Shown: piece after piece, positions 3,771 through 5,519 of the stretch | Layout: every line of letters begins with the position of its first letter | How positions within the stretch are numbered: position 1 is the first letter of the stretch | Origin: Octopus vulgaris | Lineage: Eukaryota | DNA length: 64,000 nt | Reading direction: 5' to 3' | Assembly (NCBI GenBank): GCA_951406725.2 | Contig: OX597842.1 | Span: 17,236,001 to 17,300,000, forward strand | Translations under genes and position numbers: made by a program | The notes under the pieces: model-generated | The model's input: only the letters and a program-made list of their open reading frames with translations | What the model was told of the DNA's origin: nothing | The model's database searches: none

Positions 3771-4261
3771 AATCTCCTCACACGGTTAGAATCTAACAAG
3801 TGACCTGTCCGTTGTAGTGTTTTTAACTGATCCCTATGCTGACTCACTCACACCTTTTACAAATTAATAACTGATGTATTGTTAAATTCCTTATTTCAAA
3901 GTTTATCCTTCACCAGCATACACCGTTTTTAAAACTCGGAAATGCAAGACATTTATCACACATATATATACATACATACATACATGCATACATACATACA
4001 TACATATATATATATATATATATATATATATATAATCAATCAATATAGGGTGGCAAGGAAAATTTTGCAGAATTTTTTTGCCACCAGCGGCCCAGTGGGA
4101 AAAAATTAAATAGTCATAGACCATTTTTAAGTTCAACATTAACAATTAAGGAACGGCCATAATAGGCCATTCACCCACTAGAAATAACAGCCAAAGCTTC
4201 TACCGCAAATAAAGATCAATTCCGTAAATCAGGAGAAAATTAAAAAAACATTTACCCTGTA

Positions 4262-4368
4262 ATTTCTTGTACGGTATACCGTTTCATCTGCTGTTTAATG
4301 GTAAACTAACCTGATTAAATTAAATCAAGCCAATCTTCCATAAGCCCTCAGATTCTTCAGCAAGAAAT
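4262..4368 (-). ncRNA. Type I hammerhead ribozyme (485-bp unit)
   Basis: Reverse complement of 5105-5211. Confidence 0.85.
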
Positions 4369-5104
4369 AGCTCAAGTCGGAACAGATATTTACACGAGTA
4401 TACCCAATCCTGCCAAGGCAATATCTGACCTAAAATTTTCAAATCGTCGCACTCGCGCCAAATTTATCGGCAGCAAATAAATCGTCGATTCCATTACGGA
4501 ATTAACCAAAAAATTCATAATTAATCAATATAGGGTGGCAAGGAAAATTTTGCAGAATTTTTTTGCCACCAGCGGCCAGTGGGAAAAAATTAAATAGTCA
4601 TAGACCATTTTTAAGTTCAACATTAACAATTAAGGAACGGCCATAATAGGCCATTCACCCACTAGAAATAACAGCCAAAGCTTCTACCGCAAATAAAGAT
4701 CAATTCCGTAAACAGGAGAAAATTAAAAAAACATAAATGTTTTTTTAATTTTCTCCTGTTTACGGAATTGATCTTTATTTGCGGTAGAAGCTTTGGCTGT
4801 TATTTCTAGTGGGTGAATGGCCTATTATGGCCGTTCCTTAATTGTTAATGTTGAACTTAAAAATGGTCTATGACTATTTAATTTTTTCCCACTGGGCCGC
4901 TGGTGGCAAAAAAATTCTGCAAAATTTTCCTTGCCACCCTATATTGATTAATTATGAATTTTTTGGTTAATTCCGTAATGGAATCGACGATTTATTTGCT
5001 GCCGATAAATTTGGCGCGAGTGCGACGATTTGAAAATTTTAGGTCAGATATTGCCTTGGCAGGATTGGGTATGCCTCGTGTAAATATCTGTTCCGACTTG
5101 AGCT

Positions 5105-5211
5105 ATTTCTTGCTGAAGAATCTGAGGGCTTATGGAAGATTGGCTTGATTTAATTTAATCAGGTTAGTTTACCATTAAACAGCAGATGAAACGGTATACC
5201 GTACAAGAAAT
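5105..5211 (+). ncRNA. Type I hammerhead ribozyme (485-bp unit)
   Basis: atttcttg CTGAAGA atctg..cagat GAAA cggtataccg TA caagaaat; 8-bp stem I; ACGGTATACCGT palindrome; predicted cut after A5203. Confidence 0.9.
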
Positions 5212-5519
5212 TACAGGGTAAATGTTTTTTTAATTTTCTCCTGTTTACGGAATTGATCTTTATTTGCGGTAGAAGCTTTGGCTGTTATTTCTAGTGGGTG
5301 AATGGCCTATTATGGCCGTTCCTTAATTGTTAATGTTATATATATATATATATATATATATATATATATATATATATATATATATATATATATATATATA
5401 TACATATACATATATATACATATATATATATATATATATATATTTATATATATACATACACACACACCACACACACACACACACACGAATATATATATGT
5501 ATATACATATATATATATA

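Follow-up and report, generated by a model that had tools for sequence, protein, structure and literature searches.

A palindromic insertion of a putative non-LTR retrozyme with a Penelope-like footprint in Octopus vulgaris

Introduction

How does a 485-bp repeat that encodes no protein come to lie in a genome as a nearly perfect palindrome, with a ribozyme on each strand? The question is raised by positions 4032-5337 of a 64,000-nt stretch of Octopus vulgaris DNA (the window), which is animal DNA, AT-rich and rich in microsatellites. A sequence-only reading of the locus had described a retrozyme-like unit and had proposed reverse transcription of a circular or multimeric ribozyme-processed RNA, followed by fold-back synthesis. 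It overlooked that insertions of Penelope-like elements (PLEs) have been published with exactly this overall arrangement as their signature. The explanation favoured here, with a probability of roughly 0.7, is that an animal non-LTR retrozyme, carried as a non-autonomous passenger by a PLE with an endonuclease, inserted recently at 4032-5337 through PLE-driven target-primed copying of its RNA.

Architecture of the insert

The insert was found to consist of nothing but sequence of the 485-bp unit, set between two (TA)n runs that its outer ends adjoin on both sides (Table 1). The period was evident from positions 4734-4852 and 5219-5337, which are identical (119/119). The inverted repeat 4135-4734/4737-5337 spans 1203 bp and shows 598 matches, 1 mismatch and 3 one-base gaps (598/602), while the stem around the loop is perfect over 159 bp. 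The arms measure 703 nt (left) and 604 nt (right), and their sense strands diverge from the centre, in a head-to-head arrangement. The left arm exceeds its mirror by 103 nt, reaching to 4032. The flanks display the same strand polarity on both sides and no mirror symmetry. The near-perfect 1.2-kb palindrome and the more-than-unit-length copies on both strands around a 2-nt loop, as previously claimed, were confirmed.

The copy on the + strand starts at the equivalent of 5219 when the templated match is counted (cut+16), or of 5222 when the start of the mirror is taken (cut+19), and it ends 134 nt beyond its own cut. The sequence-only reading, which had placed the start about 18 nt past the cut and the end about 135 nt past the next one, agrees with these values within 1-3 nt. 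Three of the four differences between the arms are one-base gaps, all of them in the left arm; this bias (3/3 events) was not significant (p 0.16) and was not used to order the arms.

The longest stop-free stretch in the doubled unit was 66 codons, in line with the earlier claim that no ORF is present. No ORF for a reverse transcriptase (RT) or a GIY-YIG endonuclease was detected in the unit, as judged from the ORFs of the window and of the doubled unit, and a tRNA scan found none. LTR, PBS and PPT are absent, and the unit is non-coding, arranged head to tail, with a GC content below 50% (36%). The description of 4032-5337 as a young, non-coding repeat is supported. Since each strand carries one ribozyme (one hammerhead per arm, on its own strand), the release of a monomer from cut to cut is impossible at this locus.

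Table 1. Coordinates of the insert, its ribozymes and targets, and the neighbouring inserts of like architecture
Feature	Positions	Strand	Remarks
Left target	3960..4031	.	Compound (TA)n/(TACA)n microsatellite
Left arm	4032..4734	-	1.45 units; begins (5') in the centre, where the unit corresponds to 5222 (cut+19); meets (TA)n with its 3' end at cut+235-238
3' tail of the left arm alone	4032..4134	-	103 nt; its end (equivalent of 4952-4955) recurs in other copies
Hammerhead mirror copy (predicted)	4262..4368	-	Core at 4360; predicted cut at 4270
Loop of the head-to-head junction	4735..4736	.	2 nt; loop letters and the preceding base extend the unit on the + strand; 1-nt microhomology 4734/4737
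Right arm	4734..5337	+	1.25 units; begins (5') where the unit corresponds to 5219 (cut+16); meets (TA)n with its 3' end at cut+134
Complete unit	4737..5221	+	485 bp; 36% GC; no ORF; strong self-pairing on + (z -6.0)
Type I hammerhead (predicted)	5105..5211	+	Descriptor, fold of -34.3 kcal/mol, shuffles; predicted cut after 5203
Right target	5338..5490	.	(TA)n, then TACA/CA repeats; polarity as in the left flank, no mirror; target-site duplication unreadable
Tandem/inverted insert, 6.9 kb	10696-17620		Arm complementarity reaches 100% across 1357 nt; one hammerhead on + (17409-17451), one on - (10831)
Second hammerhead-bearing unit without an ORF (505-nt period)	17749-19137		Head-to-head arms, shifted by 148 nt against each other, inserted in (TA)n
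Frameshifted Penelope-like element, RT + GIY-YIG	20052-26487		RT fragment 21647-22189; Asn-rich ORF ending in GIY-YIG 22144-23943

The hammerhead ribozyme

The predicted ribozyme is built from an 8-bp stem I (5105-5112/5204-5211) followed by the core CUGAAGA (5113-5119), a 5-bp stem II (5120-5124/5183-5187) that encloses 58 nt and is followed by GAAA (5188-5191), and a 3-bp stem III (5192-5194/5199-5201) with a self-complementary tetraloop, after which come the GUA triplet and the cut. A strict descriptor (stem I of at least 7 bp, stem II of at least 5 and stem III of at least 3) was matched by none of 20,000 dinucleotide shuffles, and a loose one by 18 of 20,000. The core (CUGANGA, GAAA, NUH), the three helices and the open helix I are those of type I. 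The hammerhead claimed previously was therefore upheld, with 0/20,000 shuffles reaching the same strength and with family variants that fit the helices. Two canonical features are missing: there is no canonical loop 1/loop 2 layout for the tertiary contact, and the 10.1-11.1 pair is A-U (5120/5187) in place of the conserved G10.1-C11.1 pair described as typical of hammerheads (PMC4209133).

The search against Rfam gave no match at the gathering score, and its 33 sub-threshold matches were hairpin look-alikes, none of them a hammerhead. The motif was missed because stem II encloses 58 nt. A motif scan allowing at most 60 nt between the core halves also misses it (68 nt here), and a wider scan detects it.

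The isolated motif folds into a three-way junction at -34.3 kcal/mol. When the unit was folded as a circle, a value of -145.1 was obtained for the + strand, compared with -108.7 ± 5.8 for shuffles and -95.9 for the other strand. In the modelled monomer, stems II and III would form with a probability of 0.99 and stem I would be displaced (0.02), the active fold costing 3.2 kcal/mol. In a transcript spanning both arms, the predicted cost of the active ribozyme fold would be about 144 kcal/mol.

The family in public sequencing runs

The unit was present wholly or partly in 20 of the 24 listed runs, and with half of its words or more in 19 of them, these coming from 9 studies under three organism labels; run X20 (share 0.04) was left out. 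It is a very large family, found under three organism labels. Contigs of four runs (32, 398, 3873 and 13012) were aligned on 4790-5274, a reference chosen to contain all ends and the cut, and the share continuing into unlike sequence was 0.13, 0.01, 0 and 0, respectively. Three overlapping contigs of run X1 tile the full period with 0 differences from the right-arm unit 4790-5274, and the contigs make up a closed 485-nt path without an ORF. The sequence-only reading had named copies always attached to PLE ORFs as an argument against its own proposal; such attachment was not seen in the contigs, which cover about 80-200 nt of the unit, so that an ORF-linked minority could escape. A search with a 20-base pattern returned 3 metagenome loci, each matching over 20-24 nt only and thus attributed to chance, and 0 viral loci.

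The family is very polymorphic, with variants dense at 5196-5204. Judged by eye, the substitutions are compatible with the helices: stem I has G5112A and C5204U, and stem II has G5124A and C5183U, each noted site by site. The only change of the core, again by eye, falls at the free position 7, and the stem III loop remains self-complementary.

Runs X1 and X2 were taken as RNA runs by guess; this probable status is supported because A>G and T>C changes absent from the DNA runs speak for RNA. Summed contig depth was not taken as copy number. The allele of the window at 4919 accounts for 0.5% and 0.2% of the depth in DNA runs vs 63% and 84% in the probable RNA runs. Thus the haplotype of 4032-5337, rare in DNA, dominates the probable RNA runs, and a young haplotype is probably being expressed.

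Of 40 listed substitutions, 12 occurred in the probable RNA runs alone, and every one of these was A>G (7) or T>C (5). Among the variants common to the DNA runs these two classes made up 10 of 28, a significant difference from 12/12 (p 1.2e-4). Two loose ends of X1 showed, by eye, 6 A>G changes within 25 nt, including one at 5191, and 6 T>C changes within 27 nt. This pattern would match A-to-I editing on both strands; the editing of repeats is known in coleoids (PMC9068888). The adenosine at 5191, which belongs to the catalytic core of the hammerhead, reads G in putatively hyper-edited contigs of the probable RNA run X1.

The ends of other copies were evaluated on 11 non-edge joints from a listing of the best-supported ones, after leaving out 7 rows crossing the edge of the reference, one duplicate and the row going from 5274 to 4790. 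Six of the 11 joints resume at 5205, 5205, 5205, 5213, 5215 and 5221, that is, 2-18 nt past the cut. Under a uniform expectation this clustering at 5205-5221 has a p of 7e-7, and without the three 5205 rows 3 of 8 remain (p 0.002), the interval having been picked post hoc; the alignment starts may have been pushed to 5205 by the dense variants at 5196-5204. The 3' end of the left arm recurs: two contigs of X2 go from 4952 into an AT repeat, and a joint of X3 leaves 4952. The end of the right arm was absent among the loose ends listed. Head-to-head joints were observed in X2 (4814-4816 with 5180-5182, 2-nt microhomology, seen from both sides, and possibly a library product) and in X7 (about 4905 with 5213). 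These other joints of the 485-nt family, like those of the three neighbouring inserts, are not co-terminal, and a strand-changing joint at 5219-5222, corresponding to the centre of 4032-5337, was absent among the joints listed.

Neighbouring inserts and other features of the window

Three more inserts of the same architecture were found within 23 kb, one of them a coding PLE (Table 1). In total, four such inserts, from four unrelated families, lie within 27 kb.

The insert at 10696-17620 has internal 267-bp repeats and a strong strand skew, and no Pfam match was obtained in its scanned ORFs. In the insert at 17749-19137, two hammerheads lie in the left arm, and the core of one is altered. Compared with the other passes, the right arm shows 3-4 base differences in its last 46 nt (3/45 aligned bases), as if a second template had been used, and the 5' starts of this insert, at cut+206 and cut+354, are not near its own cut. 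Because each arm has sequence that is missing from the other, fold-back alone cannot build this insert. When the 485-bp unit was compared with this second non-coding unit, a marginal score of 35 was obtained against a shuffle maximum of 31. Against the neighbouring PLE ends within the window, the scores were 23, 23 and 27 vs shuffle maxima of 29, 32 and 35, and no clear likeness to any of these ends was seen.

The PLE at 20052-26487 has an inverted 5'-truncated arm and a hammerhead (26369-26453) with a long stem II, 58 nt separating the core halves vs 68 in the 485-bp unit. We take this element to be Neptune/Nematis-like, based on a motif reading of its cysteine linker. A search with its GIY-YIG part, covering 200 candidates, returned 0 homologues at E 0.001. 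Its right terminal repeat is interrupted by a fragment of a mariner-type transposase (25038-25397). At 61819-64000, a minus-strand hammerhead (core 61896, long stem II) accompanies a plus-strand PLE ORF remnant (63236-64000); together they probably represent another inverted PLE insert, the fifth, truncated where the window stops.

The window also holds other repeats. A LINE ORF of 975 codons (endonuclease and RT) occupies 27404-30331; its relative from Argonauta hians (57% identity) was the fourth of 120 listed and the only listed row with a species name. Three tandem L1/Tx1-like LINE 3' fragments (zf-RVT, Pfam E about 4e-8) lie at 51657-54929 with spacings of 1359 and 1113. Short self-complementary, MITE-like elements of 144 and 257 bp were observed at 2843-2986 and 50115-50371, and seven copies of a 103-bp tandem repeat at 40023-40940. 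A dispersed 770-bp repeat occurs at 6690-7461 and 19291-20037 (90% alike, opposite orientation, 12 kb apart), with more copies near 32146-33359. The repeat at 6046-6171 presumably resembles an octopus SINE.

Discussion

In the favoured explanation, each arm would have been copied from RNA that began close to one cut, contained a complete unit and an uncut ribozyme, and extended 134 or about 237 nt further. The starting point, seen in the data, is a closed, ORF-less 485-nt family unit with one type I hammerhead; the haplotype of the locus, rare in DNA, dominates the probable RNA runs. A tandem source locus would be transcribed and its upstream hammerhead would cut, setting the 5' end of the RNA. 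The next hammerhead would stay uncut, an alternative helix outcompeting its stem I by only 3 kcal/mol. By analogy with PLE biochemistry, the RT-endonuclease of a PLE would nick both strands of (TA)n, and cDNA synthesis would be initiated at internal AU-rich positions that lie 134 and about 237 nt beyond the uncut ribozyme. Both cDNAs would then extend across this ribozyme and a complete unit, leaving the last 16-19 nt before the upstream cut uncopied, a geometry that is visible in the insert. Finally, the two cDNA ends may join by 1-nt microhomology, or the first cDNA may fold back and be recopied, either giving a palindrome with one longer tail. The product would be a dead end for monomers, and read-through RNA would form a 600-bp hairpin that hides the ribozyme and may feed ADAR.

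For the second arm, two primings joined by the 1-nt microhomology are somewhat favoured, and fold-back of the first cDNA is a possible but less probable origin. The two primings are ranked above fold-back since the latter fits 4032-5337 only if the longer left arm came first. The fold-back step of the sequence-only reading is narrowed in the same way, working here only in that order, and the neighbour at 17749-19137 cannot have arisen by fold-back alone. The remainder of that reading was borne out in part: the unit is retrozyme-like, and reverse transcription of a longer-than-unit RNA through an uncut hammerhead stands, but the clustered 5' ends fit the end of a linear RNA made by the ribozyme better than a circle. 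An L1-style twin priming on one RNA was considered and rejected; it predicts that the 5' end of one arm lies at the 3' end of the other, and 5219/5222 meets neither 4852 nor 4955.

The alternative of a circular template, in which a 485-nt circRNA would be reverse-transcribed for more than one round and its cDNA would fold back, seems rather unlikely. It draws on the haplotype shared by the passes within each arm (119/119; 217 matches, 1 mismatch and 2 gaps) despite the polymorphism of the family, on the co-terminal arms (within 3 nt), on the stability of the + strand as a circle (-145.1 vs -108.7 ± 5.8 for shuffles) and on the circles formed by the retrozymes of coral, mussel and axolotl (PMC7229834). 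Identical passes within each arm are compatible with a linear or a circular template, however, the contigs would look alike for a circle and a tandem, and a circle gives no reason for a cDNA ending 2-19 nt past the cut. Moreover, one circle cannot yield the passes of one arm in 17749-19137, which differ at 3 of 45 aligned bases (4 by eye), and fold-back from the right arm needs a further jump to supply the 103-nt tail. A linear multimeric template is favoured over a circle because the 5' ends of the copies cluster just past the cut, and the sequences examined suggest a multimer cut by the ribozyme.

It is improbable that truncated stumps of a coding PLE were inserted here and that the unit is no more than the terminal repeat (pLTR) of such an element. 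Although type I hammerheads occur in PLE ends (PMC4209133), a long stem II is common to two neighbouring PLE-associated hammerheads and the majority of PLE copies are 5'-truncated, the 485-nt period and the successive units without an ORF between them speak against stumps, as do the contigs that tile a closed 485-nt path, almost none continuing into unlike sequence. Were the unit a non-autonomous derivative that arose from a PLE by deletion, this would amount to the favoured explanation in different terms. An inverted duplication of a resident copy at the DNA level, by replication template switch or from a hairpin-capped break, would produce the near-perfect arms, the 2-nt loop and the 1-nt microhomology; it is a very improbable origin for a mirror without flank DNA, with outer ends that both lie within the unit at (TA)n but at unequal positions, one of them found again in other copies, and for four such inserts of four unrelated families within 27 kb. 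An assembly or chimeric-read artefact is hardly credible. Three of the four arm differences are one-base gaps in the left arm, as long-read errors would be, and the junction itself is absent among the joints listed from short-read contigs; yet the flanks are unmirrored with one strand polarity, 103 nt of the left arm have no mirror, and other head-to-head joints of the family exist in X2 and X7 (a joint from an RNA library may arise in vitro). The sequence-only reading had itself raised a chimeric-read artefact as an objection; a fold-back read is contradicted by the asymmetric arms and the non-mirrored flanks.

A far-reaching extension of the target-primed copying proposed here can be formulated tentatively, and we regard it as doubtful. 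Octopods would hold a very large, hitherto unreported retrozyme family whose copies record the PLE reaction stepwise: ribozyme cutting in vivo would set the template's 5' end; the template would be a linear multimer, with no circle; a PLE dimer would prime two cDNAs at fixed internal sites; and head-to-head copies would give long dsRNA and ADAR hyper-editing, including that of the catalytic-core adenosine, as a host brake on the ribozyme.

The PLE footprint on an ORF-less unit supports the idea that retrozymes ride on Penelope enzymes. The mobilisation of animal retrozymes by PLEs has been argued from shared ribozymes, co-occurrence and pLTR likeness, without insertion footprints in the available text (PMC7229834; bioRxiv 10.64898/2026.07.22.740005), and what the hammerhead does in the copying of PLEs is described as unclear (PMC8557442, PMC11167929). 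With a young, high-copy, ORF-less unit that bears the full PLE footprint and has 5' ends near the cut, the choice between circle and linear template and between one and two primings becomes testable by a copy census. The palindrome itself is an ordinary PLE footprint, and repeat editing in coleoids is already known (PMC9068888); what the locus usefully adds is the occurrence of this footprint on a unit without an ORF, together with 5' ends close to the cut and the two-strand editing pattern. In largely non-subscription literature, the supplements of the main retrozyme papers lying outside the scope, no paper was found on cephalopod retrozymes, inverted retrozyme insertions or retrozyme editing.

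Comparison with known systems

The inverted head-to-head insertion, the tail and the (TA)n target of 4032-5337 have no counterpart in the retrozyme descriptions of the available text of PMC7229834 and bioRxiv 10.64898/2026.07.22.740005, and this locus, with one hammerhead per strand, fails the definition of "active" given in the latter. The arrangement corresponds to that of PLE insertions, for which a partial tandem, an adjacent inverted 5'-truncated copy, a one-sided tail and a (TA)n bias have been described (PMC8557442), and whose head-to-head junctions can contain palindromes (Arkhipova et al. 2013, PMC3846280). In work with a purified PLE protein, nicking and extension affected both strands of an AT-rich DNA, with two internal start sites downstream of the hammerhead; the protein is predicted to be a dimer and accepts uncut RNA as substrate (Frangieh et al. 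2024, PMC11167929). In 4032-5337 a partial tandem with an adjacent inverted copy, head to head with a palindromic junction, was found, as reported for PLEs (PMC8557442, PMC3846280, PMC11167929), together with a one-sided 3' tail (103 nt), a (TA)n target and a hammerhead that lies upstream of the presumed internal RT start sites and would be uncut in the copied RNA (PMC8557442, PMC11167929). The supplement of PMC8557442 includes octopus PLEs with a preference for (TA)n, and PLEs of 190 families make up 6.83% of the Octopus vulgaris genome according to the supplement of PMC13282606. Unlike the PLEs described in these sources, 4032-5337 has no RT/GIY-YIG ORF, its tail measures 103 nt vs the published 30-40 nt, and a single 485-nt period makes up the entire element.

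MRC1 and other non-autonomous Chlamys PLEs are likewise non-coding passengers, with pLTR-like repeats and multicopy head-to-tail insertions (PMC8557442). They belong to a green alga, however, most Chlamys elements are without hammerheads, and their 3' end resembles that of the autonomous partner (PMC8557442), whereas no partner of the octopus unit was found within the window.

The closest likeness of the unit itself is to the metazoan non-LTR retrozymes (Cervera and de la Pena 2020, PMC7229834; Li, Clavereau and Pollet 2026, bioRxiv 10.64898/2026.07.22.740005), with which it shares a non-coding head-to-tail unit of a few hundred bases and a GC content below 50%, a single type I hammerhead in each unit whose loop III is self-complementary, RNA that pairs with itself, a high copy number and co-occurring PLEs; mobilisation by PLE is proposed in both sources. 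Its 485 nt lie above the 150-450 bp of the former and within the 51-972 bp of the latter. The 58-nt insert in stem II and the lack of a canonical loop 1/loop 2 layout set it apart from the retrozymes described there. Most likely, the 485-bp unit is an animal non-LTR retrozyme; it is not an autonomous PLE.
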